From Heterodontus francisci (taxonomy: Eukaryota), in the NCBI RefSeq assembly GCF_036365525.1, contig NC_090410.1, positions 12,072,062 to 12,136,061 on the forward strand: DNA of 64,000 nucleotides, written 5' to 3'. The position numbers and the translations under genes are program-made. Position 1 is the stretch's first letter; each line of letters opens with the position of its first letter. Below, piece by piece: positions 9,942 through 63,444 of this stretch. The notes below the pieces were generated by a model. It did no database searches, was not told the origin of the DNA, and was given only the letters and a program-made list of their open reading frames with translations.

Positions 9942-10050
9942 CGCCGCTATGTGATCAGTGCTAACAGTAGTCATTAGCAACCCCATGAATTGTTCCTGCA
10001 TTTGGGGGGTGGGGAGGTGGTGCTCACACTATAATCAACATAATCAACCC

Positions 10051-10185
10051 AGTTCTGATAATAGGTCACAGACCTGAAACATTAACTCTGTTTCTTTCTG
10101 CACAGATGCTGCCAGATCTGCTGCGTATTTCCAGCATTTTCTGTTTTTACTTCAGATTTCCAATATCCACACTATTTTGCTTTTG
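10051..10185 (+). mobile_element. Penelope-like short element (single arm) with degenerate minimal hammerhead motif
   Basis: AGTT-CTGATAA-T-AGGTC-ACA-GACCT-GAAAC-ATT-AACT followed by the same body and tail as 19075-19202. Confidence 0.65.
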
Positions 10186-10274
10186 TATTTATTATCATAG
10201 CATCTTGTAAGGTTCAATAAATGTCTAACAATGACATGCCCCTGCTACTGCAGGGTGACTTTACCCGTACACTT

Positions 10275-14429: not shown

Positions 14430-15155
14430 CTTGCTCAGGGCACAGGTCCAAGGACACAGACTCTCTCCCTGGGGTAACAAGTCCCTGGACATTGACTGTG
14501 TCCCAGGGTCACAGGTCCATGGACATTGACTCTGTCCCAGGGTCACAGGTCCATGGACATTGACTGTGTCCCAGGGTCACAGGTCGATGGACACTGACTC
14601 TGTCCCAGGGTCACAGGTCGATGGACACTGACTCTGTCCCAGGGTCACAGGTCGATGGACATTGACTCTGTCCCAGGGTCACAGGTCGATGGACATTGAC
14701 TCTGTCCCAGGGTCACAGGTCGATGGACACTGACTCTGTCCCAGGGTCACAGGTCGATGGACACTGACTCTGTCCCAGGCTCACAGGTCCATGGGCACTG
14801 ACGCTGTCCCAGGGTCACAGGTCGATGGACATTGACTCTGTCCCAGGGTCACAGGTCCATGGATGCTGATTCTTTCCTAGGGTTACAGGTGCATGAACAC
14901 AGACTCTTTCCCTGGGGTACGGGTCCATGAACGCTGACTGTGTCCCAGGGTTACAGGTCCTTGGACACTGACTGTCCCTGGGGTATGGGTCCATGGACAC
15001 TGATTCTCTTCCTGGGGCACAGGTCCATGGACACACTCTTTCTGAGATACAGGTACAGGAATACTGATTTTCTCCCTGGGGTTACAGGTACAGGGACACT
15101 GACTCTCCCTGGGGTTGCAGGTACAGAGGTTCTGACTCTCTCTGGGATACAGGTC
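14430..15155. repeat. 34-bp minisatellite (about 20 copies) in last YIF1B intron
   Basis: Unit GGACATTGACTCTGTCCCAGGGTCACAGGTCCAT (e.g. at 14521, 14555), homogeneous centre and degenerate flanks. Confidence 0.95.
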
Positions 15156-17298: not shown

Positions 17299-17642
17299 AG
17301 TTTAGTTTAGTTTAGAGATACAGCACTGAAACAGGCCCTTCGGCCCACCGAGTCTGTGCCGACCATCAACCACCCATTTATACTAATCCCACGCTAATTC
17401 CATATTCCTACCACATCCCCACCTGTCCCTATATTTCCCTACCACCTACCTATACTAGGGGCAATTTCTAATGGCCAATTTATCTACCAACCTGCAAGTC
17501 TTTGGCATGTGGGAGGAAACCGGAGCACCCGGAGGAAACCCACGCAGACACAGGGAGAACTTGCAAACTCCACACAGGCAGCACCCAGAATTGAACCCGG
17601 GTCGCTGGAGCTGTGAGGCTGCGGTGCTAACCACTGTGCCGC
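17299..17642 (-). mobile_element. HE1-like V-SINE inserted in the CR1 5'UTR
   Basis: Reverse complement of tRNA head, V-domain (TGTGTGGAGTTTGCAAGTTCTCCCTG...CTCCGGTTTCCTCCCACA) and CR1-type tail with (CTAAA)n. Confidence 0.9.
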
Positions 17643-18980
17643 TAATCTAAGACTAAGTCATGGCAGGAGAGCTCGGCCCCGTGAAATGCTCCTCCTGCGC
17701 TATGTGGGCAATCAGGGACACTTCCAATGTCCCTGGTGACCATGTGTGCAGGAAGTGTATCCAGCTGCAGCTACTGACCGCATTGCGCAGCTAGAGCTGC
17801 GGATGGACTCACTGTGGAGCATCCGCGATGCCAAGGACGTTGTGGATAGCACGTTTAGTGAGGTAGTCACACCGCAGGTAATGGCTGCAGAGGCAGAAAA
17901 GGGACAGGTGACCACCAGGAGGAGTAATAGGCACAGGCAGGTAGTGCAGGAGTCCCCTGTGGCCATCCCCCTCTCAAACAGATGTATCTGTGAATCCTGT
18001 TGGGGGGGATGGCCTCCTAGGGAAAAGTAGCAACAGCCAAGTTCGTGGCACCACAGATGGCTCTGCTGTACAGGAGAGGATGAAAAAGAGAGGGAGAGCC
18101 AACTGATAGGAAATTCAAATGTAAGGGCAACAGACAGGCGTTTCTGTGGCAGCAAACGAGACTCCAGGATGGTATGTTGCCTCCCTGGTGCAAAGGGTCA
18201 AGGATGTCTCGGAATGGCTGAAGGGAGAGGGTGAACAGTCAGAGTTCGTGGTACACATTGGTACCAATGACATAGGTAGAAAGAGGGATGAGGTCCTGCA
18301 ACAAGAATTTAGGGAGCTAGGCAGCAGATTAAAAAGCAGGACCTCAAAGGTTGTAATCTCTGGATTACTCCTGGTGCCACGTGCCAGTGAATATACGAGT
18401 AGGAGGATAGAGCTGATGAATGCGTGGCTGAGAAGGTGGTGCAGGAGGGCTTTAGTTTTCTGGATCACTGAGTCTGTTTCTGGCAAAGGTGGGACCTGTA
18501 CAAGTTGGACGAGTTGCACCTGAACCGGAACGGGACCAACGTCCTTGCAGGGAGGTTTACTGGTGCTGTTGGGTGGGGGGTATAAACTAATTTGGCAGGG
18601 GGGTGGGATACAGAGTGGAGGTACAGTAGAGGGTGATGCTCAGTCAAATATAGAAGAGAAAACTGAGTCAGTCTGGAAGGCAGAGCAAATATAGATCTGT
18701 TAAGGCACAAGTGAAAAATGCAAGGCTGGATTGCATCTATTTTAATGCAAGGAGTCTTACTAGTAAGGCAGATGAATTGAGAGCGTTGATTAGCACATGG
18801 CATTATGATATTATTGCTATCACAGAGACATGGTTGAGGCCGCCCTCAAGGACTGGCAGCTCAATATTCCAGGGTATAGAATCTTCAGGCGTGACAGGGG
18901 AAGTGGCAAAATAGGGGGTGGCATTGCACTGTTGATCAAGAAATCAATTACTGCAGTAAGGAGGGATGATATCTTAGAAG

Positions 18981-19202
18981 CAAAAACAAGAAATGCTGGA
19001 ATCACTCAGCAGGTCTGGCAGCATCTGTGGAAAGAGAAGCAGAGTTAACGTTTCGGGTCAGTGACCCTTCTTCCGAAGAAGGGTCACTGACCCGAAACGT
19101 TAACTCTGCTTCTCTTTCCACAGATGCTGCCAGACCTGCTGAGTGATTCCAGCATTTCTTGTTTTTGTTTCAGATTTCCAGCATCCGCAGTATTTTGCTT
19201 TT
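18981..19202 (+). mobile_element. Penelope-like palindromic short element with minimal hammerhead motif
   Basis: Perfect 93-bp inverted repeat (18981-19073 / 19075-19167), 35-nt one-sided tail, 15-bp TSD ATGATATCTTAGAAG (18966-18980, 19203-19217). Confidence 0.8.
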
Positions 19203-21339
19203 ATGATATCTTAGAAGGTTCCTCAAATTAGGCCATATGGGTAGAACTTAAAAACAAAAAGGGGGCAATCACTTGGCTGGCAATGTACTACAGACCTCCA
19301 AACAGTCAGGGAGAGATAGAGGAGCAGATATGTAGGCAAATCTCAGAGAGGTGTAAAAATAATATGGTAATAATAGGGGATTTCAACTTCCCCAGTATCA
19401 ATGGGATTGTCTTTGTGCAAAAGGCTTAAAGGGGGCGGAATTCCTAAAATGCATACAGGAGAGCTTTTTGAGCCAGCACGTAGAAAGTCCTATAAGAGAA
19501 GAGGCAGTGCTGGACCTAATCTTAGGGAATGAAGCTGGACAAATGGTAGAAGTGTCAGTGGGGGAGCATTTTGGGATGGTGACCATTACTCTGTAAGATT
19601 TAAGGTAGTTATGAAAAAGGACCGAGATGGACCGGAAATAAAAGTACTGAATTGGGGGAAGGCCGATTTTAATATGATAAAACAGGATCTTGCCAAAGTG
19701 GACTGAGAGCAGCTACTTGTAGGAAAGTCTACATCAGACCAGTGGGAGTCATTCAAAGAGGAAATAGTGAGAGTTCAGAGCCAACATGTACCCGTTAAGG
19801 TGAAGGGTAGGACTAACAAGTCCAGGGAGCCCTGGATGTCAAGGGATTATAGAGGATTGGATCAGGAAAAAAAAGGAAGCTTATGGCAGATTCAGAGCGC
19901 TGAAAACAGCAGGGGCACTAGAGGAGTATAGAAAGTGTGGGAGGGTACTTAAAAAAGATAATTAGGAGAGCGAAGAGGGGACATGGAAAAAACACTGGCA
20001 GGCAAGTTAAAGGAAAATCCTAAGGCATTTTATAAATATGTGAAGGGCATGAGGGAAAGAGTAATACTCCCTCCCTTTCAAAGCTAATATGTTCAAGTAT
20101 ATTGCAATCCCCCTCCCTGATCTCTACACCTACATCGTCCTTTTCCATAGTGAACACAGATGAAAAGTAATCATTTAAAACTTCACCTAGGTCCTCCAGC
20201 GCCTTACACAAATTGCCACTTTTGTCCCTAAAGGACCCTACTCTTTCCCTGGTTAACTGTGTACAGTTCTGGGCACCACACTATAGGAAGGATGTGATTG
20301 CACTGGAGAGGGTGCAGAAGAGATTCAGTTGCCTGGGCTGGAGCATTTCAGCTATGAATAGAGACTGAAAAGGCGAGGGTTGTTTTCCTTAGAGCAGAGA
20401 AGGCTGAGGAGAGATATGATTGAGGTATACAAAGTTATGAGGGGCATTGATAGGTTAGATAGGAAGAAACGTTTTCCTTTAGCGGAGGGGTCAGTACCCA
20501 GGGGGCATAGATTTAAGGTAAGGGGCAGGAGGTTTAGAGGGGATTTGAGGAAAAAAAATTTCACCCAGAGGGTGGTTGGAATCTGGAACGCACTGCATGA
20601 AGAGGTGGTAGAGGCAGGAACCCTCACAACATTTAAGAAGTATTGAGATGAGCACTTGAAATGCCATAGCATACAAGGCTACGGGCCAAGTGCTGGAAAA
20701 TGGGATTAGAATAGTTGGGTGCTTGATGGCTGGTATAGACACGATGGGCCGAAGGGCCTGTTTCTATGCTGTATAACTCTATGACTCCAATTTGCCTTTT
20801 CTTGTACAAATTCATTGATACTTGGGTCGGTAACCAGATACTGTAGGTTCAAGATAATTGGTAGAGGAACCAGAGAGGAGGTTAATCTCATCCAGTGAGT
20901 TGTTGTGATCTGGAATGCACTGCCTGAAAGGATGGTGGAAGCAGATTTAGTAATAACTTTTGAGAGGAAACTGGATAAATACTTGAAAAGGAGAGATTTG
21001 CAGGGCTATGGGGAAAGAGCAGGGGCGTGGGATTAATTGGATAGCTCTTTTGAAGAACCAGAATAGGCACGACAGGCCAAGTGGCCTCCTGCCTGTTAGA
21101 TTCTAAGAAATGGAGAGTGCTGACATCACCCACTGTTCATACTCCCAATGCCGTAGAATAGTATAGCACAGAAGGAGGTTATTCTGCCCATCGAATTTAC
21201 GTCAGCTCTTTCAAAGATCAATCAGTTTGACCCATTCTTCCCCCATATCCCTTCAACTTTTTTCTTAAGCAATAATCCATTTTCCTTTTGAAGGCTACTA
21301 TTGAATCTGTATCCACCACGTTCTGGCCGAAGACAGGCA

Positions 21340-31558: not shown

Positions 31559-31602
31559 CTGAAATACAAGAAAACACAAGGAGAGCCAGTGGTTGAGAAA
31601 GA

Positions 31603-31937
31603 GGCGCAGTGGTTAACACCGCAGCCTCACAGCTCCAGCGACCCAGGTTCAATTCTGGGTACTGCCTGTGTGGAGTTTGCAAGTTCTCCCTGTGTCTGTG
31701 TGGGTTTCCTCCAGGTGCTCCAGTTTCCTCCCACAGCCAAAAGACTTGCAGGTTGATAGGTAAATTGGCCATTATAAATTGCCCCTAGTATAGGTAGGTG
31801 GTAGGGGAATATAGGGACAGGTGAGGATGTGGTAGGAATATGGGATTAATGTAGGATTAGTATAAATGAGTGGTTAATGGTCGGCACAGACTCGGTGGGC
31901 CGAAGGGCCTGTTTCAGTGCTGTATCTCTAAACTAAA
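31603..31937 (+). mobile_element. HE1-like V-SINE
   Basis: Near-identical to copies at 17299, 39182 and 39899. Confidence 0.9.
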
Positions 31938-32159
31938 GATGGAGGGGTGCTGTTTACAGATGGGGTGTAGTCCACAGACAGGATGACGTCTAGATGGGTA
32001 ATTTATCCATTATTCCATCAGAGAAGCCCCTCATGTTGAAATTTCATCCAACAGGAGTGAGTGGAAAGGCATTTGGGAACTGTTGGATTACATTCAGAGA
32101 GAAAGGCTCATCTTTATAAGACTTATCGCAGTTCAAAGCACACCGTGTCAAATGAATTA

Positions 32160-32532: not shown

Positions 32533-32745
32533 AATACAAAAGCAAAATACTGCAGAAACTGGGAAATGGAAATATGCTGGAAACACTTAATCAGGCAGCA
32601 TCTGTGGAGAAAGAAACAAAGTTAATGTTTCAGGGCGATCATCTGTGTTCTGATGAAAGGTCATTGACCTGAAACATTCACTCTGTTTCTCTCTCTCACA
32701 AATGCTGCCACACCTGCTGAATTTTTCGAGCATTTTCTGTGTTTA
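32533..32745. mobile_element. Older Penelope-like palindromic short element with canonical hammerhead core
   Basis: Imperfect inverted arms of the 18981 family; CTGATGA (32650-32656) A AGGTC ATT GACCT GAAAC ATT. Confidence 0.72.
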
Positions 32746-32939: not shown

Positions 32940-33660
32940 TAACCTATAATAGCACACAGGTATTCTGTTAACCAGTAACACCACACAGGGGTGCACTGTT
33001 AATCTGTAACACCACACAGGGGTGCACTGTTAATCTGTAACACCACACAGGGGTGCACTGTTAACCTGTAACACCACACAGGGGTGCACTGTTAATCTGT
33101 AACACCACACAAGCGTGCACTGTTAACCTGTAACACCACACAAGCGTGCACTGTTAACCTGTAACACCACACAGGGGTGCACTGTTCATCTGTAATACCA
33201 CACAAGGGTGCACTGATAATCTGTAACACCACACAGAGATGCACTGTTAACCTGTAACACCACACAGGGGTGCACTGTTAACCTGTAACACCACACAGGG
33301 GTGCACTGTTAATCTGTAATACCACACAGAGGTGCACTGTTAATCTGTAACACCACACAGGGGTGCACTGTTAATCTGTAATACCACACAGAGGTGCACT
33401 GTTAATCTGTAATACCACACAAGGGTGCACTGTTAATCTGTAACACCACACAGAGGTGCACTGTTAACCTGTAACACCACACAGAGGTGCACTGTTAATC
33501 TGTAACACCACACAGGGGTGCACTGTTAACCTGCAATACCAAACGGGTGTTCTGTTAATCTGTGATAGCACACAGGGGAATGCTGTTAACCTGTGATAAC
33601 ACACAGGGGTGCCTTGTTAATCTAAAAAAAAACTGGGACGCACTATTAACCTGTGATAAT
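32940..33660. repeat. 31-bp minisatellite (about 23 copies)
   Basis: Unit ACCACACAGGGGTGCACTGTTAATCTGTAAC. Confidence 0.95.
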
Positions 33661-35725: not shown

Positions 35726-36130
35726 TACCACAGCATGTAATAGTGGACAGGGGTGCACTGTTAATCTGTAACAACGCACCAGGGATGCTTTCACATGTTA
35801 ACAGTGCATCCCGTGGGCTCTTACAGGTTAACAGCCCTCCCCTGTGTATTATCACAGATTAACTGCGCACCAGTGTCTTATTACAGGTTAACAGCGTGCC
35901 CTGTTGGCTCTTACAGGTTAAATACGGCCCTGTGTCTTATCACAGGTTAACAGTTTACCTGTGTCTTATCACAGGTTAAAAATGCATCCTTTTTTCTTAT
36001 CACAGGTTGACAGCACACCCCTGTGTACGATTGCAGGTTAACAGCACACCCCTGTTGGCTCTTACAGATTAACTGTGCGGCCCTGTATCTTATCACAGGT
36101 TAACAGTTTACCCCTGTCTCTTATCACAGG
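35723..36130. repeat. Continuation of the 31-bp minisatellite, then about 10 degenerate copies in inverted orientation
   Basis: Forward unit at 35746-35772; from about 35795 units read ACAGGTTAACAGCACACCCCTGTG (reverse complement). Confidence 0.8.
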
Positions 36131-39181: not shown

Positions 39182-39530
39182 GGGCGGCACAGTGGCGCAG
39201 TGGTTAGCACCGCAGCCTCACAGCTCCAGCGACCCGGGTTCAATTCTGGGTACTGCCTGTGTGGAGTTTGCAAGTTCTCCCTGTGTCTGTGTGGGTTTCC
39301 TCCAGGTGCTCCGGTTTCCTCCCACATGCCAAAAGACTTGCAGGTTGATAGGTAAATTGGCCATTATAAATTGTCCCTAGTTTAGGTAGGTGGTAGGGAA
39401 ATATAGGGACAGGTGGGGATGTGGTAGGAATATGGAATTAGTGAGGGTTAGTATAAATGGGTGGTTGATGGTCGGCACAAACTCGGTGGGCCGAAGGGCC
39501 TGTTTCAGTGCTGTATCTCTAAACTAAACT
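39182..39530 (+). mobile_element. Full-length HE1-like V-SINE
   Basis: GGGCGGCACAGTGGCGCAGTGGTTAGCAC head, V-domain, CR1-type tail. Confidence 0.92.
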
Positions 39531-39898: not shown

Positions 39899-40234
39899 GT
39901 GCGCAGTGGTTAGCACCGCAGCCTCACAGCTCCAGCGACCCGGGTTCAATTCTGGGTACTGCCTGTGTGGAGTTTGCAAGTTCTCCCTGTGTCTGCGTGG
40001 GTTTTCTCCAGGTGCTCCGGTTTCCTCCCACAAGCCAAAAGACTTGCAGGTTGGTAGGTAAATTGGCCATTATAAATTGCCCCTAGTATAGGTAGGTGGT
40101 AGGGAAATATAGGGACAGGTAGGGATGTGGTAGGAATATGGGATTAGTGTAGGATTAGTATAAATGGGTGGTTGATGGTCGGCACAGACTTGTTGGGCCG
40201 AAGGGCCTGTTTCAGTGCTGTATCTCTAAACTAA
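39899..40234 (+). mobile_element. HE1-like V-SINE
   Basis: Near-identical to the 39182 copy. Confidence 0.92.
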
Positions 40235-40607
40235 AGAAATGCTATTTGACCCAATTGGTCCATGCAAGTTTCCTCAACCTCTTCGCCTTGCTCTATCAAC
40301 ATGGCCTATTCCTTTCTCCCTCATGCTTATCTACCTTCCCATAATGGCAGTTTGACTCAGCTATTCCCTGTGGTAGCAAATTCCACATTCCAACCTTTCA
40401 CAGTTTAAACAAGTTTCTCCTGAATTCCTCATTGGATTTATTGGTAACTACCTTATAATTATTTTTAAGGCAGAGGTAGCTAGATTCTTGATAAGCAAGG
40501 GGGTGGGAATGTGGAGTAATCAGTTCAGCCATGAACTTATTGAATGGCGGAGCAGGCTCGAAGGGCCAAGTGGCCTACTCCTGCTCCTAATTCGTATGGT
40601 CGTATGG

Positions 40608-43587: not shown

Positions 43588-46500
43588 TCATCGTTATACA
43601 GTACAGAAACAGGCCCTTCGGCCCATCGTGTCTGTGCCAGCTGTCAAGCACCTATCTATTCTAATCCCATTTTCCAGCACTTGGCCTGCAGCCTTCTATG
43701 CTATGGTGTTTCAAGTGCTCATCTAAATGCTTCTTAAATATTGAGGGTTCCTGCCTCTACCACCCCTTCAGGCAGTGCGTTCCAGATTCCAACTACCCTC
43801 TGGGTGAAAAGATTTTTCCTCAAATCCCTCTAAATCTCCTGCCCCTTATCTTAATCTATGCCCCCTGGTTATTGTCCCCTCCACTAAAGGAGAAAGTTTC
43901 TTCCTATCTATCCTATCAATGCCCCTCATAATTTTGTATACCTCAATCAGGTCCCCCCTCAGCCTTCTCTGCTCTAAAGAAAACAACCCTAACCTAGCCA
44001 GTCTCCTCATAGCTGAAATGCTCCAGCCCAGGCAATATCCTGGTGAATCTCCTCTGCACCCTCTCCAGTGCAATCACATCCTTCCTATAGTGCGGTGACC
44101 AGAACTGTACACAGTACTCCAGCTGTGGCCTAACTAGCTGTATTTATACAACTCCATCATAACCTCCCTGCTCTTGTATTCTATGCCTTGGCTAATAAAG
44201 GCAAGTATCCCATATGCCTTCCTAACCACCTGATCTAACTGTGCTGTTGCCTTCAGTGATCTATGCACAAGTGCACCAAGGTCCCCCTTTACTTCATAGG
44301 GTCCTACCATCCATTGTATATTCCCTTGCCTTGTTAGTCTTCCCAAAATGCATCACCTCTCAGTACCTCTCAGGATTAAATTCCATTGCCACTGCTCTGC
44401 CCATCTTACCAGCCCATCTATATCATCCTGCAATCGAAGGCTTTCCTCCTCACTATTTAGGACAACACCAATTTTTGTGTCATTTGCGAACTTACTGATC
44501 ATACCTCCTATATTCACTTCTAAATCATTAATGTACACTACAAACAGCAAGGGTCCTGGCACTGATCCCTGCAGTACACCACTGGTCATAGGCTTCCACT
44601 TGTATAAACAACCCTTGACCATTACCCTCTGCCTCCTGCCCTAAGCCAATTTTGGTTCCAATTTGCCAAATTGCCCTGCATCCCTTGGGCTCTTATCTTC
44701 ACCAATCTCCCAAGCGGGACCTAATTAAAGCCTTACTGAAGTAGACTACATCAACAGCTTTACCCGCATCTACACATCTAGTCACCTCCTTGAAAAATAC
44801 AAAGAACAGTACAGCACAGGAACGGGCCATTCAGCCCTCCAACCCTGTGCCAATCTTGATGCCTGCCTAAACTAAAACCTTCTGCACTTCCAGGGTCTGT
44901 ATCCCTCTATTCCCATCCTATTCATGTATTTGTCAAGATGCCTCTTAAATGTCTCTATGGTACCTGCTTCCACCACCTCCCCCGGCAACAAGTTCCAGGC
45001 ACTCACCACCCTCTGTGTAAAGAACTTGCCTCGCACATCCCCTCTAAACTTTGTCCCTCGCACCTTAAACCTATGTCCCCTAGTAACTGACTCTTCCACC
45101 CTGGGAAAAAGCTCTGACTATCCACTCTATCCATGCCGCTCATAACTTTGTAAACCTCTATCATGTCGCCCCTCCACCTCCATCGTTCCAGTGAAAACAA
45201 TCCGAGTTTATCCAACCTCTCCTCATAGCTAATGCCCTCCAGACCAGGCAACATCCTGGTAAACCTCTTCTGTACCCTCTCCAAAGCCTCCACGTCCTTC
45301 TGGTAGTGTGGCGACCAGAATTGCACACAATATTCTAAGTGTGGCCTAACTAAAGTTCTGTACAGCTGCAGCATGACTTGCCAATTTTTATACTCTATGC
45401 CCCGACCGATGAAGGCAAGCATGCCATATGCCTTCTTGACTACCTTATCCACATCCATTGCCACTTTCAGTGACCCGTGGACCTGTATGCCCAGATCTCT
45501 CTGCCTGTCAATACTCCTAAGGGTTCTGCCATTTACTGTATACCTCCCACCTGCATTAGACCTTCCAAAATGCATTACCTCACCTTTGTCCGGATTAAAC
45601 TCCATCTGCCATTTCTCCGCCCAAGTCTCCAACCGATCTATATCCTGCTGTATCCTCTGACAATCCTCATCACTGTCCGCAACTCCACCAACCTTTGTGT
45701 TGTCCGCAAACTTACTAATCAGACCAGCTACATTTTCCTCCAAATCATTTATATATACTACAGAGCAAAGGTACCAGCACTGATCCCTGCGGAACACCAC
45801 TAGTCACAGCTCTCCATTCAGAAAAGCACCCTTCCACTGCTACCCTCTGTCTTCTGTGACCGAGCCAGTTCTGTACCCATCTTGCCAGCTCCCCTCTGAT
45901 CCCATGTGACTTCACCTTTTTGTACCAGTCTGCCATGAGGGACCTTGTCAAAGGCTTTACTGAAGTCCATATAGATAACATCCACTGCCCTTCCTTCATC
46001 AATCATCTTCATCACTTCCTCAAAAAACTCAATCAAATTAGTGAGACACGACCTCCCCTTCACAGAACCATGCTGCCTCTTGCTAATAAGTCCGTTTGTT
46101 TCCAAATGGGGGTAAATCCTGTCCCGAAGAATCCTCTCTAATAATTTCCCTACCACTGACGTAAGGCTCACCGGCCTATAATTTCCTGGATTATCCTTGC
46201 CACCCTTCTTAAACAAAGGCACAACATTGGCTATTCTCCAGTCCTCTGGGACCTCACCTGTAACCAATGAGGATACAAAGATTTCTGTCAAGGCCCCAGC
46301 AATTTCTTCCCTTGCCTCCCTCAGTATTCTGGGGTAGATCCCATCAGGCCCTGGGGACTTATCTACCTTAATGCTTTGCAAGACACTCAACACCACCTCC
46401 TTTTTGATAATGAGATGACTGAGACTATCTGCACTCCCTTCCCTCGGCTCATCATCCACCAAGTCCTTCTCCTTGGTGAATACTGATGCAAAGTACTCAT

Positions 46501-49500
46501 TTAGTACCTCACCCATTTCCTCTGGCTCCACACATAGATTCCCTTCTCTGTCCTTGAGTGGGCCAACCCTTTCCCTGGTTACCCTCTTCCTCTTTATATA
46601 CGTATAAAAAGCCTTGGGATTTTCCTTAATCCTGTTTGCCAATGACTTTTCATGACCCCTGTTAGCCCTCCTGACTCCTTGCTTAAGTTCCTTCCTACTG
46701 TCTTTATATTCCTCAAGGGATTCGTCTGTTCCTAGCCTTCCAACCCTTATGAATGCTTCCTTTTTCTTTTTGACGAGGCTCACAATATCCCGTGTTATCC
46801 AAGCTTCCCGAAACTTGCCAAACTTATCCTCCTTCCTCACAGGAACATGCTGGTCCTGGATTCTAATCAACTGATGTTTGAAAGACTCGCACATGTCAGA
46901 TGTTGATTTACCCTCAAAAAGCTGCCCCCAATCTAAATTCTTCAGTTCCTGCCTAATATTGTTATAATTAGCCTTCCCCCAATTTAGCACCTTCACCCGA
47001 GGACTACTCTTATCCTTATCCACAAGTACCTTAAAACTTATGGAATTATGGTCACTGTTCCCGAAATGCTCCCCTACTGAATCTTCAACCACCTGGCCGG
47101 GCTCATTCCCCAATACCAGGTCCAGTACAGCCCCATCCCTCGTTGGACTATCTACATACTGTTTCAAGAAGCCCTCCTGGATGCTCCTTACAAATTCTGC
47201 CCCATCCAAGCCCCGAGCACTAAGTGAGTCCCAGTCAATATAGGGGAAGTTAAAATCACCCACCACTACAACCCTGTTACCTTTACATCTTTCCAAAATC
47301 TGTCTACATATCTGCTCCTCTACCTCCTGCTGGCTGTTGGGAGGCCTGTAGTAAACCCCCAACATCGTGACTGCACCTTTCCTATTCCTGAGCTCCACCC
47401 ATATTGCCTCGCTGCATGACCCCTCCGAGGTGTCCTCCCGCAGTACAGCTGTGATATTCTCCTTAACCAGTAATGCAACTTCCCCACCGCTTTTACATCC
47501 CCCTCTATCCCGTCTGAAGCTTCTAAATCCTGGTACTTTTAGCTGCCAATCCTGTTCTTCACTCAACCAAGTCTCTGTAATAGCAACAACATCATAGTTC
47601 CAAGTACTAATCCAAGCTCTAAGTTCATCTGCCTTACTTGTTCTACTTCTCTCATTGAAACAAATGCACTTCAGACCACCAGTCCCGCTGTGCTCCGCAA
47701 CATCGCCCTGCCTGCTCTTCCTCTTAGTCTTACTGGGCTTATTTACTAGTTCCCCCTCATTTATTTCACTTGCTGTCCTACTGCTCTGGTTCCCACCCTC
47801 TTGCCACACTAGTTTAAACCCTCCCGAGTGACGCTAGCAAACCTCGCAGCCAGGATATTTGTGCCCCTCCAGTTTAGATGCAACCCACCCTTCTTGTACA
47901 GGTCCCATCTGTCCCTGAAGAGATCCCAATGGTCCAGATATCTGAAACCCTCCCTTCTACATCAGCTGTTCAGCCATGTGTTTAGCTGTGTGTTCAATCA
48001 AGTTAGTTAGACGTGAGCTCCCCCTGACAAAGCCGTGCTGACTATCCATGATTAATCCCTGCCTCTCTAAGTGGAGATTAATCCTGTCCCTCAGAATTTT
48101 TTTCCAATAGTTTCCCTACCACTGACAGACTTGCTGGCCTGTAATTACCTGTTTTATCCCTGCTACCCTACTTGAATAATGGTACCACATTCGTTGGCAT
48201 CTCTCTGGCCATAGGATTTGAAAATTTGTGTCTGAGCCCCTGCTATCTCCCCCCTTGCCTCACTTAACGGCCTGGGATACATCTCATCTGGGCCTGGGGA
48301 TTTATCCACTTTTTTATGCCTGCTAAAACAGCTAATACTCCCTCCCTTTCAATTCTAATCTGTTCAACTATATCACAATCCCCCTCCCTGATCTCGATAC
48401 CTACAGCATCCTTCTCCATAGTGAACACAGATGAGAAGTTATCATTTAAAACCTCACCTATATCCTATGGCTCCACACACACATTGCCACTTTGGTCCCT
48501 AATGGACCCTACTCTTTCTCTGGTTATCCTCTTGCCCTTGATATACTTAAAACGCCTTACGATTTTCCTTTACCTTGCCCGCCAGTATTTTTTCATGTCC
48601 CCTCTTCGCTCTCCTGATTACTTTTTTAAGTACCCCCCTACACTTTCTATACTCCTCTAGTGCCTCTGCTGTTTTCAGCGCTTTGAATTTGCCATAAGCC
48701 TCCTTGTTTTTCCTTCTCCAATCCTCTATCACTTGACATCCAGGATTCCCTAGACTTGTTGGTCCTACCCTTCACTTTTAAGGGAACATGTTAGCGCTGA
48801 ACACTCCATTCCTTTTTGAATGACTCCCACTAGTCTGACATAGATATTCCTACAGATAGCTGCTCCCAGTCCACTTTGGCCAGATCCTGTTTTATCATAT
48901 TGAAATCGACCTTCTGCCAATTCAGTACTTTTATTTCTGGTCCCTCTTTGTCCTTTTCCATAACTACCTTTTAAATCTTACAGAATTATGGTCAGTATCC
49001 CCGAAATGCTCCCCCACTGACACTTCTATTACTTGTCCGACTTCATTCCCTAAGATTAGGTCCAGTACTGCCCCTTCTCTTTTAGGACTTTCTACATGCT
49101 AGGTCAAAAAGCTCTCCTCTATGCATTTTAGGAATTCCACCCCCTTTAAGCCTTTTGCACGATGACAATCCCAGTTGATATTGGAGAAGTTGAAATCCCC
49201 TACTATTATTACCCTATTATTTTTACACCTCTCTGAGATTTTACTACGTATCTGCTCCTCTATCGCTCCCTGACTGTAGTAGAGTCCCAGCCAAGTGTTT
49301 GCTCCTTTTTGTTCTTAAGTTCTACCCATATGGCCTCATTTGAGGAACCTTCTAAGATATCATCCCTTCTTACTGCAGTAATTGACTCCTTGATCAACAG
49401 TGCAATGCCACCTCTTTTACACTCTCCCCTGTCACACATGAAGATTCTATACCCTGGAATATTGAGCTGCCAGCCCTGCCCTTCCCGCGACTATGCCTCT

Positions 49501-50780: not shown

Positions 50781-51146
50781 GTCGGGTCAGGAGACTCCTC
50801 AGCTTTCCCCTGCCCTTCGGAGGATCGTTCACACCCAGGTAACCTTCACAGGCGCTCCAGCGACATGCTGGCCCTGTGTGATCAAGGCAAGCTTCTTGCT
50901 TTGCAGTCTGAGGGCTGTTCAGATTGTGTTGTGGATGTTGTATCCTCCCTTTGCCCCAGTCTACCCTGGGTCCCTCAAATCTAAATAATTCACTCCCCTC
51001 TTTCGAATGATATTAGGAACCGATTATGGCCTTGTCCTGACTGGATTTTAACTCTCCAGTGATATTTTAAATTTGGTATCCCCAATTTGGCTGTTTTGAG
51101 TGAATGTGTCTGGCTGAGGCAACAGTTTGGATTAATCGCACTGTAA

Positions 51147-51193
51147 GAAAGCTGTTCACCCAGAGTCTCAGTGACATTGCACCTGGAGCTTTC
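51147..51193 (+). promoter_or_regulatory. U1A polyadenylation inhibition element (PIE) RNA hairpin
   Basis: GAAAGC-TGTTCAC-CCAG-A-GTC-TCAGT-GAC-ATTGCAC-CTGG-A-GCTTTC: three stems, two 7/1 internal loops, canonical AUUGCAC box, 23 nt before AATAAA. Confidence 0.9.
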
Positions 51194-51216
51194 AAACTTA
51201 CTGAACTAACAAGAAG

Positions 51217-51222
51217 AATAAA
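51217..51222 (+). terminator. SNRPA polyadenylation signal
   Basis: AATAAA right after the PIE, followed by GT-rich downstream element (TTGTGAGTGTGTTT). Confidence 0.85.
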
Positions 51223-55366: not shown

Positions 55367-56058
55367 GTAAGTGCACTTGACTTCTTTACACTGTTTTATC
55401 TTTATCTATTGTGTCAGCTGGCACAGCAGAGCACTCAAGATTATGTAATGCTGTTTACATAACAAAGGTGGCTTCTTCTCTCAACACCCCCTCCTGCCAG
55501 CAGTAGTTGGGAATAAGAACAGAAAATGCTGGAAACACTCAAGTCATTTAGCACCAGAGAGAACAGACAAGTTAGTGTTTGTCTGATGGGCATCTCTCCT
55601 GTGTTTCCAGTATACTCCACTATTGCCACACCCAGTGTGGGATTAGGCTATAGCATCCATGAGAACTCCAGACTTGCCTCATGTCTAGGCTGATCTGTGC
55701 TAGGGCAGCAGTAAGTGGAAAACAACTGGCCTTTAGAGAAGAAAATAAAGGCAGGAGGGGAAAATCAACCAGGATTCCAGCTCCTGATCACTGGCCAGGG
55801 ACCCCTGCTCGTAAGGATGTGCGCGCATTGGGTTTGATTGTGATAATGCCTACATTTGAATTGTCTGCTGCCTCTCCAGGGCTCGGCTCGTACATGAAGG
55901 ATGATCAATTAGGTGAGACATCGGAGGCTGACTGATGCTGACGTAAACTGCAGTGGGAGTCAATTGTCAATGGGGGTAGTCGGGGGAGGGGGAAGAATTA
56001 GTGGTCAAAAAGATGAGTTTATTACAAACTGTTTGACAATGCCCACCTGTGTTTGTAG

Positions 56059-59018: not shown

Positions 59019-59984
59019 TCAAGGCAGTGGCGCACACTCGGAAGTGGCTTCAAGCGTCTGCTTTGTGGCCGAGGTGGTGGTGGTGGAGAGGCTGCTGTCT
59101 GTCGGCATGTAACCCCCGGAGCATTTCATGGCCTCCTGCAGTCTCAGCAGGGCCCGCGAGTCACTGCTCCGCACGGCGCTGCAGAAGAGCCGGACATGCT
59201 CCTTCAGCTCATCAATTTGCTGCTGGGCGCTGCCGTTCTGTCGGATCAGGTCCTTGGTTTTCAGCGTGATCTCCAGCAGCCCTGACCGGCTCAGGATCTC
59301 CACTGTGTTGCGGAAACGCCGCTGCTTGGCAGCACTGGGGACTGCCCGCCTGGAGACTCTGGTAACTGGTCTTGTGTCGCCACCGGGTGACTGGGCGCTC
59401 GGAGCTCGGGAAAATACGGAGGGGGAGGGGGAGGAAGAAGAGCAGGAGGAGGACGACGACCAGGAGTACAAAGACTCCGAGGATTCAGACTGAGAACCAA
59501 GATTTGGAGAGAGTACCGGCGATGGGGAGACCGAAAGGTCAAACTGACTTAAGTTTGTTACTCCAAACCAGGATGGCTGCTGAGCACTCTCAGCTTGCCG
59601 ACAGTTGCCCACTGGTGCTACATGCGAGGTTTGGTCTTTTCTGGAAGTTTGCTGCAAGGGAATTCCCGCCTCGTCCAGGCACAACCGTGTGCTCTTGCTG
59701 TGATCTGCTGTCCTGTCATCCTGAGCCACACGGTACCCCATCTGAACTTGGCTGCCACTGTCGTCCCGACTTTTGTCTGGGTGAGGGGCTATCCTTGGGT
59801 AGGAGTTTAATATCGGAAGGTAGGTGGCCTTTGCCTCAGTCTTCTGGGATTTCAAAGAAGTTGCCAAAGGCTGTCGGATGAAGACCACTCGGGTCTGGCC
59901 TGCTGGTGCACCAAGCGAGTGTCGACTCCCCCAGGTCTGTAGCTGAGCGCGAACAAGCTGGCTCCTTGTTGGAACGGACAAAGG
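59019..59984 (-). CDS. CLOCK-interacting pacemaker (CIPC)-like protein, last exon
   Basis: gaacag acceptor; motifs YLPILNSYPRIAPHP and KQRRFRNTVEILSRSGLLEITLKTKDLIRQN..Q.QIDELKEH..LF..A typical of the CIPC family. Confidence 0.9.
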   Translation of the reverse strand, partial: PLSVPTRSQLVRAQLQTWGSRHSLGAPAGQTRVVFIRQPLATSLKSQKTEAKATYLPILNSYPRIAPHPDKSRDDSGSQVQMGYRVAQDDRTADHSKSTRLCLDEAGIPLQQTSRKDQTSHVAPVGNCRQAESAQQPSWFGVTNLSQFDLSVSPSPVLSPNLGSQSESSESLYSWSSSSSCSSSSPSPSVFSRAPSAQSPGGDTRPVTRVSRRAVPSAAKQRRFRNTVEILSRSGLLEITLKTKDLIRQNGSAQQQIDELKEHVRLFCSAVRSSDSRALLRLQEAMKCSGGYMPTDSSLSTTTTSATKQTLEATSECAPLP

Positions 59985-61099
59985 CTGTTCAAAACACCAA
60001 TAGGAAAAGCAGAATTAAAATCTAATGGCTTAACGGGATCGCCGCTGCTTGCGACTGTACAACTGGCCCCTGCGCATCCACTCCATGCAAGTCACCCATC
60101 TATTCAATGCGAGTGTGCAACAAGACAGAATTTAACATGAATATTGAATCAGTGCATCTAATCAACATTTGCATGGCAACTGCCAGTGAGCACCCAGTGC
60201 AAGCAGTGAACACACAGAATAACAATAGCTCGGCCAGGATTCCCAGCACTATCGGTAGTAGAGGGTTTTCTCTGGTTTAGTCCAATACAAAGTCAGAATC
60301 CTGGCTCTGGATTACAAAACTGGAACTAGGCAGAGTAGGTCTTGGCCATTTGATCTTTCACTGGCAAGTGTCTTTCTCTTGACAAAACAAATATTCTCTT
60401 TGAAATGAATGTCAATATTGCTTGAACATGCTGAGATGGTTACAACTTACCGAGGTGTTAAACCTTTCACATAACCTGAGTATTACTATTTTCACTCCCA
60501 GTGCTTTGAACAGAAAGTGGAGCTGCCCTTTAGTGAATGGGAACTATTGTCCACAACACTCATTTGCCAGCGTGCAAGCAGAGGATCCACACCATCTACC
60601 CACTCCAACTGTTTCTCATTCGCAAGGCCTTTCCTGCTCCTGTCCTGAAGGCAATCACTCCCACTGGGGTACAGTTCCATAGGGCCACATTTTAATGTGA
60701 ATCTAGACAGCAAGCTTTGGCAAACTATTCTCAATGGGGTGGCATCACAGCCTCCTCACTAGATCAAAGCACAGATGAGAGATCTCCAGTAAGAGGGCCA
60801 CTGTAATGATCAGGAACACTGGCTGATCCATCCCTCCCACTACTAGCCTTGGGCACTGAGGCCAACTCAGGCTCTCCAGAGAACAAGAGCAGTCCACATG
60901 TCATTTATTAAAACCATTTGCTCTCAAAGTGACCTCTGCACTCACCTCTAAGAGTGTATGTTAGGTGAAGCTGCAGAGTCTACCCATGTACGCCCCTTTT
61001 AGACCATGACTGCATGATGTGTCCCTACATTTTTCCTGGCCCGACCCACATCTTAAGAGGGTTTACTATAGAGGACTGTGGAGTAGGGAGGGTCTGTAC

Positions 61100-61850: not shown

Positions 61851-63040
61851 AGAATTCAGCCAACAAACCAAAGAAAAAAAAATTCACTGGCCACTCATTT
61901 AGCTGCCGCCTGTGGGATCTTGCTGTGTACAAAATGGCTGTCATGTTTTCCTACACAGCAGGGACTGCATTCGAAAGTAATTCTTTGTAGGCAATGTGCT
62001 TTGGAATGTTTCTCAGACAAAGTGTTACATAAATGTAGGTTTACTAGGGGGTGCCACAGTCTCAGGATATGGGGTCAGCCATTTTAGACTGAGGAGGATA
62101 GAAATTTCTTCAAGGGTTTGGAATTTTCTACTCCAGAGGGCGGTGGATGCTCAATTGTTGAGTAATTCAAGAATGAGATCGATAGGATCGTTGGACTCTA
62201 AGGGAATCAATGGATATGGGGATTGGGCAGGAAAGTGAAGTTAATGTCAAAGATCAGTCATGAGTTTATTGAATGGTGGAGCAGGCTTGAAGGGGGGACC
62301 ATATGGTCTACTCCTGCTCCAATTCTCTATGTTCTTATGAATACAATACTGCAACTGAAGGTCTAACCAGTATTTATTTATTTTTTTTAAGTTTAGCATA
62401 ACTACTTTGCTTTTGTACTCTATTGCCTCTATGTAATAAAACCAAGGATCCCATAAGCTTTTTTAAAAACAGCCTTATCAACTTGACCAGCCACCTTCAA
62501 AGATTTGTGCTTCTGAACCCCCAGGTCTCTACTCCTACACCCCCTTTAAAATGCTGCCATTTAGTACTGTATACCACAGCATGCTTGCCTTCAGTATGAA
62601 AATGACCATTAACTACTACTCCCTGCCTCTTATCCAAAGTTGTATCCACCTCCCGACAGCCCCTTTAAATCCATGGTCTTTGCTAACAAGTCATTACATT
62701 AAATGCCTTTTAAATCTAATTATGTGACAGACGACAGCACAAGATAGAAGCACATCCATGACCTGCCCTGCAGGAGCAGATGCAAGAACAGCTCTGATCC
62801 TAATATAACCATGGCCTCGAACACAATAGAAAACCACAGGGGATGGGAGGAATCTGAAGTCATGGAAACAGCATTTCTCTGCAATGGGTTATGCAGCTGT
62901 AAGAATTATACACCGACCGTCATGTCTGCAACCTAGAGTGGAGAGTTGTCCGAGGGGGGGGCGCTGAGGGTTGGAGTTAATTCTGCTTTCAGAACAGGTG
63001 AGGGACAGATGTGCTAGATTTTTTTTAAAAAAGGGATAAT

Positions 63041-63238
63041 AGCAAAATCCTGCAGGTATTGGAAAACAGAAAATAATGGAAACCCTCAGTGTGTCAGCCA
63101 ACATCTGTGGAAAGAACGGACAAGTTTGCTTTTCAGGTGTGGAACAGTTTTGAAACGGAGTCCACAGCTGAAACATTAACCTGTCTATACTCTCCACAAA
63201 GGCTGGCTGTGCCAGAGTGCACTTCCAGCATTTTCTGC
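63041..63238. mobile_element. Highly degenerate Penelope-like palindromic short element
   Basis: Arms ACATCTGTGGAAAGA.. / ..GAAACATTAACCTGT..CTCCACA..TTCCAGCATTTTCTG of the 18981 family. Confidence 0.55.
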
Positions 63239-63444
63239 TGTTGGTTATCTCAAAGAAATGTAGAAAATTCTGAAAGGACTTGACAGGGTAGATGCCAAGG
63301 GGCTGTTTCCTCCTGTCTAGAACTAGCGGCTGTTGTCTCAGGATAAAGGATTGACCATTTAGGACTGAGGAGAAATTTCTTCACTCAGGTGGTGTGAGTA
63401 TTTGGAATTCCCTGCCCCAGAGGACATCGGTATATTCAAGAGAT

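Follow-up and report, generated by a model that had tools for sequence, protein, structure and literature searches.

A young head-to-head insertion with a hammerhead-like motif and a one-sided tail in the genome of the shark Heterodontus francisci, likely derived from the end of a Penelope-like element

Endonuclease-containing (EN+) Penelope-like elements (PLEs) carry a head-to-head inverted copy with a palindrome at the junction, a tail of 30-40 bp on one end, a target site duplication (TSD) and a hammerhead ribozyme within the repeat (Arkhipova et al. 2013, PMC3846280; Craig et al. 2021, PMC8557442; here and below, comparisons refer to the available excerpts of the cited texts). In vitro, the PLE protein PAc (Poseidon, Anolis) cuts and extends both target strands, uses uncleaved RNA, and starts reverse transcription (RT) at two internal sites that bracket the tail and are separated from the upstream hammerhead by ~100 nt or more (Frangieh et al. 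2024, PMC11167929). Hammerhead cleavage was dispensable for insertion in that system (PMC11167929). Here we describe an insertion at positions 18966-19217 of a 64,000-nt stretch of the shark Heterodontus francisci (NC_090410.1, positions 12,072,062 to 12,136,061 of the forward strand; hereafter the window). Each structural PLE feature that was tested was found at this locus, namely the inverted copy, the one-sided tail, the TSD, and the hammerhead motif, and on this structural basis the element is likely the end of a PLE pseudo-long terminal repeat (pLTR). The locus differs from the described EN+ insertions in having no open reading frame (ORF) between the repeats, in that the whole 93-bp arm forms a perfect palindrome with a 1-nt spacer, and in its TSD of 15 bp, compared with 8-10 bp in the Adineta examples. 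We hold, with moderate confidence, that it is a young, dead-on-arrival insertion in which a hammerhead-bearing repeat is present twice, head to head, and that it was likely produced by two oppositely primed reverse-transcription events.

The insertion begins with the left TSD copy (18966-18980, + strand), followed by the left arm (18981-19073, - strand), which is a tail-less inverted copy of the element end. A single C (C19074) separates it from the right arm (19075-19167, + strand), the sense copy of the element end, which is homologous to other copies in the window and to tens of thousands of reads. A 35-nt tail follows the right arm only (19168-19202, + strand), and the right TSD copy completes the insertion (19203-19217, + strand). 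The arms are complementary at 93 of 93 positions and the TSD copies are identical at 15 of 15, with the AT at 19203-19204 being common to the parent element and to the first two TSD letters. Among perfect palindromes with arms of at least 11 nt and spacers of 0-10 nt, 18981-19167 is the sole one in the 64 kb. An earlier prediction made from the sequence alone (the original prediction) had described the zero-mismatch inverted repeat with its 1-nt spacer, the asymmetric 35-nt extension and the exact 15-bp TSD, and all three descriptions held.

The original prediction also called the insertion very recent, which is borne out in the sense that it is young relative to the other copies in the window. 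None of the 108 paired sites of the insertion differ (95% upper bound 2.7%), whereas the aligned arm-to-arm identities in two other pairs in the window are 56/64 and 54/70. It should be noted that palindromes may be homogenised after insertion. The 92-bp hairpin has a predicted energy of -186 kcal/mol; if transcribed, it would be very stable, and ribozyme folding of the 18981-19167 copy would be blocked.

The target is a decayed long interspersed nuclear element (LINE; 18125-20054, + strand), which we take to be of the CR1 type. It has a GDSL-like (esterase-like) ORF1 upstream, and weak Pfam matches to Exo_endo_phos lie on both sides of the insertion, placing it within the endonuclease region as predicted. 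A paralog at 49638-48528 (- strand) aligns to both flanks at 86% identity and contains the 15-mer once, and the 15-bp repeat is therefore a true TSD. In addition, other CR1 copies are represented by 1165 raw reads in which the left-flank letters adjoin 19203 without interruption (agreement 0.92). Each outer junction shows a short primer-template match, which is AT on the right and, on the left, a target end that matches the element at three of four letters plus a possible G-U pair.

Further copies of the family occur in the window. An older head-to-head pair (32533-32745) has an asymmetric junction and a tail on its left arm only, and a decayed head-to-head pair (63038-63246) likewise has a tail on its left arm only. 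An older single-arm copy with a tail (10048-10189, + strand; 84% identity over 121 nt) has a CUGA core and starts with CCAG-TTC. In all three recognisable pairs of the window, the tail is confined to one arm and the junction lies inside the 5' half of the hammerhead motif, in line with the expectation that breakpoints are non-random relative to the hammerhead. In a search for TSDs, no convincing flanking repeat was seen for the three older copies, the best candidate matching at 7/8. A very decayed remnant of the family at 55512-55615, possibly a fourth inverted pair, was left out of these counts.

Four public runs (two contig sets of one sample, possibly that from which the window derives, and two raw-read runs with the same species label) were compared with positions 19050-19500 at 90% likeness. 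The runs contain at most 0.46 of the sampled words of the locus and may be low-coverage or come from a relative. In raw-read run X21, 42,053 of 11,989,820 reads matched and depth on the element was ~25,000; the family would thus number some 40,000-90,000 copies, assuming a genome of 3-6 Gb. The family is placed in sharks by named Heterodontus francisci gene models that include parts of it, one such part being identical at 43 of 44 residues to the translation of 19072-19203. Family pieces in both orientations were seen in predicted calpain-1-like, eosinophil-peroxidase-like, and uncharacterised proteins (P0002, P0003, P0006), which may reflect exonisation or annotation error. An unnamed 89-aa product (P0005) runs antisense through the arm and the motif and then into a sense-arm-like stretch, and could represent a further head-to-head pair whose spacer is short. 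When the reading frame that stays open through the palindrome, or the homologous peptide, served as a protein query, the matches were limited to exonised pieces in shark gene models, the 89-aa product, and an unrelated bacterial repeat protein, and exact-pattern scans of viral contigs, metagenomes, and prokaryote genomes gave no match. Our literature search found no paper on this shark family; Repbase and Dfam lay outside its scope, and the family may be named there.

The outer ends of the insertion coincide with two 3' limits of the family. Among the loose ends listed, those at 19166 occur in 2550 X21 reads and in 1004 reads of the other raw-read run (X22), marking a proximal limit near 19166-19167, and those behind 19202-19204 occur in 9955 X21 reads, marking a distal limit; the left arm ends at the proximal limit and the right arm with its tail at the distal one. 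Behind 19204 the parent element continues. In X21, 11,664 reads cover 19074 and 9968 extend upstream of 19071 into a different sequence; these reads share that upstream sequence (agreement 0.71), an indication that the parent element is longer. Head-to-tail joints from 19202 to 19071/19073 occur in nine contigs of one contig set (X1), whose head-to-tail repeats of a ~130-nt unit may be either partial PLE tandems or a retrozyme-like array.

In all four runs the upstream consensus ends in CAG, and the parent reads CAG-TTC-(C/T)GA. The axis of the insertion therefore lies on a native micro-palindrome, TTC-C-GAA (19071-19077, + strand). The X21 upstream consensus, in an unscored comparison, resembles what we take to be the motif of a branch point, a pyrimidine tract, and a CAG acceptor. 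A 3' splice site likely lies just upstream of the 5' edge of hammerhead helix I, which we regard as a lead rather than a result. The match to the shark gene model XP_067865983.1 starts at the CAG-TTC boundary, and the splice-site-like consensus occupies the position at which the intron of D. virilis Penelope ends, the 5' end of helix I (PMC4209133).

The motif at 19071-19105 (+ strand) is predicted, from its architecture, to be a minimal type I hammerhead of the PLE kind. It comprises a U4C variant of the core (19073-19079), an unpaired A (A19080), helix II (19081-19093, including G19081-C19093), GAAA (19094-19097), a palindromic ACGU (19097-19100), a predicted cut at 19101/19102, and the 3' strand of helix I (19102-19105), all on the + strand. 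With the minimal PLE type I hammerheads (Cervera and de la Pena 2014, PMC4209133) it shares the unpaired base between A9 and helix II, the G10.1-C11.1 pair, a palindromic minimal helix III, and a short helix I. It differs from them in its U4C core, its 5-bp helix II, its shortened helix I, and its burial in a hairpin; the available text does not name sharks among the hosts. A motif scan of both strands of the 64 kb gave three matches, all in the hammerhead-bearing family. The canonical CUGANGA core is absent here, with C at position 4, where T is found in 3534 of 11,664 family reads (30%).

The original prediction had placed the fold-back point at the start of the ribozyme core, with the 5' strand of stem I removed. 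The motif is present as it was written, but the axis falls on core position 4, with C3 at 19073, and the loss of the stem I strand is only partial, TT at 19071-19072 being common to the left arm and the parent. Rfam gave no hammerhead match at the locus, as expected because the motif is minimal, and its mir-350 and SNORA69 matches, which stem from the hairpin, fell short of the gathering score. When folded by itself as a single strand, the motif did no better than shuffled sequences (z -0.31 to -0.95 in four windows with a recognisable motif), which is likewise expected since the motif is of the minimal, dimer type; folding thus gives it no support. Both arms retain the predicted scissile bond, which lies 27 nt from the axis, and the templates were therefore uncleaved.

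Junctions of the same kind were found in the reads. Five of the 15 listed joints (128 in total) switch strand, namely 19071/19071, 19071/19087, 19071/19153, 19099/19099, and 19101/19171, and all five have one end within the motif. The best supported of these, 19099/19099 (45 reads, 37 starts), lies on AACGTT, a zero-loop palindrome. We read the 19071/19087 joint as consistent with 5 nt shared by the inverted arm and the native sequence upstream. Reads collinear over the same axis as the insertion have a mean depth of 78 at 19050-19065, and the parent G is missing at 19070 in 139 of 181 reads (~1% of the family depth). With a single-copy depth that is probably below 0.6, this suggests that many loci share the axis, provided that the reads are not library chimeras or duplicates. 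A check of the palindrome in raw reads had been proposed; same-axis collinear reads are present in another individual, but none of those listed spans the locus itself.

Taken as two oppositely primed events, the insertion could have arisen as follows. A PLE endonuclease would cut both target strands 15 bp apart. One 3'-OH would then prime at the distal site (19202-19204), so that a tail is copied, and the other would prime at the proximal site (~19167) and produce no tail. Both complementary DNAs (cDNAs) would copy uncleaved RNA into the 5' edge of the hammerhead, where their ends would anneal via GAA/TTC, and fill-in would leave the native C19074 as the spacer. The ribozyme would be a passenger, providing small self-complementary patches and marking the boundary, with its cleavage not setting the ends. 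The TSD, the one-sided tail, and the two family-wide 3' ends agree with the predicted insertion by target-primed reverse transcription (TPRT) with the inverted-pLTR-plus-tail layout of PLEs. In L1 twin priming, a segment of a single template is inverted but copied only once, whereas at the shark locus the same 93 nt were copied twice. The likeness to L1 lies in the priming by both target strands and the internal joining of the cDNAs (bioRxiv 10.1101/2024.12.14.628481). With respect to PAc, the shark locus is alike in that both strands would be cut and extended on uncleaved RNA, and differs in that the PAc ORF starts at stem II, where the shark copy has no open ATG frame; the joining of the two strands into an inverted pair is not described in the available text (PMC11167929). 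Our literature search, with subscription journals outside its scope, found no paper proposing twin priming for PLE inverted junctions.

Several points weigh against this reading. Twin priming needs a homogeneous template pool to give identical arms, which is automatic under fold-back. The compared stretch is native only from 19071, so that upstream junctions are forced onto that place and inflate it. The counts of joints and ends come from the 15 joints (128 in total) and 24 loose-end entries (1075 in total) that were listed. Among these joints, 19101/19171 (38 reads, 34 starts) begins no more than 1 nt from the predicted cut. Reads that switch strand at micro-palindromes can also arise as library chimeras. 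Neither the 64-kb window nor the protein-search matches contained an RT plus GIY-YIG partner, and among the pieces listed from the four public runs no read or contig crosses the insertion locus. Covariation in helix II among the window copies consists of one G-C/A-U exchange and does not exceed that of shuffled alignments (199/500 and 269/500); the alignment has seven rows, two of them the arms of the 18981-19167 copy.

The second arm might instead have been made by intramolecular fold-back, in which one nascent strand of the same element primes itself and the tail is left when the intermediate is resolved. This has been proposed for the junction palindromes of head-to-head Penelope copies (PMC3846280), it explains the perfect identity of the arms, and self-annealing of small hairpins has been described at L1 ends (bioRxiv 10.1101/2024.12.14.628481). 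The geometry of the primer bears on this explanation. A 3-bp hairpin cannot close with a 1-nt loop, and the dominant symmetric forms have loops of 1 or 0 nt. A weak alternative with 2 bp and a 3-nt loop is possible at +2.2 kcal/mol, and a fold with a TTCG loop lies at 0.0 kcal/mol. The TTCG-loop product, with a left arm 3 nt shorter, is seemingly present in four X1 contigs (depth 1580 of 35,571, 4%) and in none of 181 X21 reads; slippage could be another source of this shorter form. The asymmetric junctions (32.6 kb, 63.1 kb, and 19071/19153) require no hairpin, and asymmetric pairs are common (two of three in the window). Furthermore, fold-back alone leaves unaccounted for the stop of the second arm at the internal 3' end of the family. 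The geometry favours annealing of two cDNAs over a hairpin, and we regard fold-back as possible but unlikely.

A stand-alone non-LTR retrozyme, that is, a tandem, circular-RNA-based derivative of a pLTR, could have been mobilised in trans, with the locus being an inverted dimer. Non-LTR retrozymes are, like the shark unit, short, non-coding, hammerhead-bearing, and related to PLE pLTRs, and they are reported in one chondrichthyan (Li et al., bioRxiv 10.64898/2026.07.22.740005). The head-to-tail joints in the nine X1 contigs also fit this explanation. However, retrozymes form head-to-tail tandems in which each unit has a complete hammerhead, whereas the shark locus is head-to-head with a tail and a TSD. 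There are no head-to-tail tandem units at the locus and no such array in the window, the copies are not permuted at the cut site, and most X21 reads enter the one shared upstream sequence, indicating a longer parent. A retrozyme origin is accordingly improbable.

According to the original prediction, the insertion records how the ribozyme defines the element ends; in this explanation cleavage would fix the 5' end and hence the fold-back point. Junctions do cluster in the motif, and listed joints start at 19101 and 19099. However, the axis lies upstream of a cut that is intact in both arms, and 9968 of the ~11,664 reads at the axis continue upstream. Read depth climbs smoothly over the predicted cut, with no step there (236 reads/nt over 19093-19109, compared with 289-710 upstream). 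U4C is reported to reduce hammerhead activity in vitro (PMC3088659), up to 70% of the reads lack the canonical U, and in PAc no RNA ends were mapped to the cut (PMC11167929). Ends set by cleavage are largely refuted for the 18981-19167 copy, and we consider this explanation very unlikely. An artefact of assembly or of long-read fold-back is equally hard to credit. It would accord with the lack of a listed read or contig across the locus and with best runs that hold only 0.46 of the sampled words, but an exact TSD return to the flank, stops at both family-specific ends, and an added tail would not be expected from it, and older pairs of the same build in the window and same-axis collinear reads in another individual's raw data also speak against it. 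A cut-and-paste miniature inverted-repeat transposable element with long terminal inverted repeats, to which a short palindromic element with a TSD might point, can be dismissed almost entirely, as the original prediction had it, given the 15-bp TSD, the one-sided tail, the solo arm in the window, the variable centres, and the ~1% of family reads that cross the insertion axis, in place of symmetric terminal repeats, a short fixed TSD, and a conserved interior.

Other features of the window were also recorded. A match resembling the U1A polyadenylation inhibition element (51144-51222, + strand; 36.8 bits against a gathering score of 50, E 0.00024) is followed by AATAAA at 51217-51222 and may mark where a U1A (SNRPA) gene ends. 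A long coding exon at 59019-60014 (- strand) matches CiPC, the clock-interacting circadian protein (PF15800, E 4e-53). Four ~340-bp copies resembling a short interspersed nuclear element, presumably similar to shark HE1, lie at 17304-17643, 31600-31939, 39191-39530, and 39901-40237 and are 93-96% alike. Minisatellites occupy 14436-15154 (34 bp), 32965-33623 (31 bp), and 35769-36130 (about 30 bp), the latter two being related and in opposite orientation. Two LINE copies (1-2703 and 45278-47988) with long RT/endonuclease frames are 94.6% identical over 2.7 kb.

The layout of inverted pLTR, one-sided tail, and junction palindrome belongs to the already published features of PLEs, and an object of this kind is ordinary for PLE-rich genomes. 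The value of the locus lies in its being a clean, readable product of a step that is still undefined in the PLE literature, the origin of the inverted repeats and tails. With very many young copies, junction counting in one shark assembly could separate twin priming from fold-back. Perfect 93-bp hairpins from the family may, in addition, be relevant to assembly errors and to double-stranded RNA. On a wider and tentative reading, which we hold to be somewhat less probable than not, the PLE stumps of sharks would be a genome-scale record of twin TPRT, in which each PLE dimer would copy the 5' repeat of the RNA into a pair of short run-off cDNAs, each with its own strand and start site, and join them via the self-complementary patches of the hammerhead, with the stop set by an intron acceptor fixed at the helix I edge from Drosophila to sharks. 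If twin TPRT is true, the inverted repeats and tails of PLEs would arise in one step, without an antisense template.

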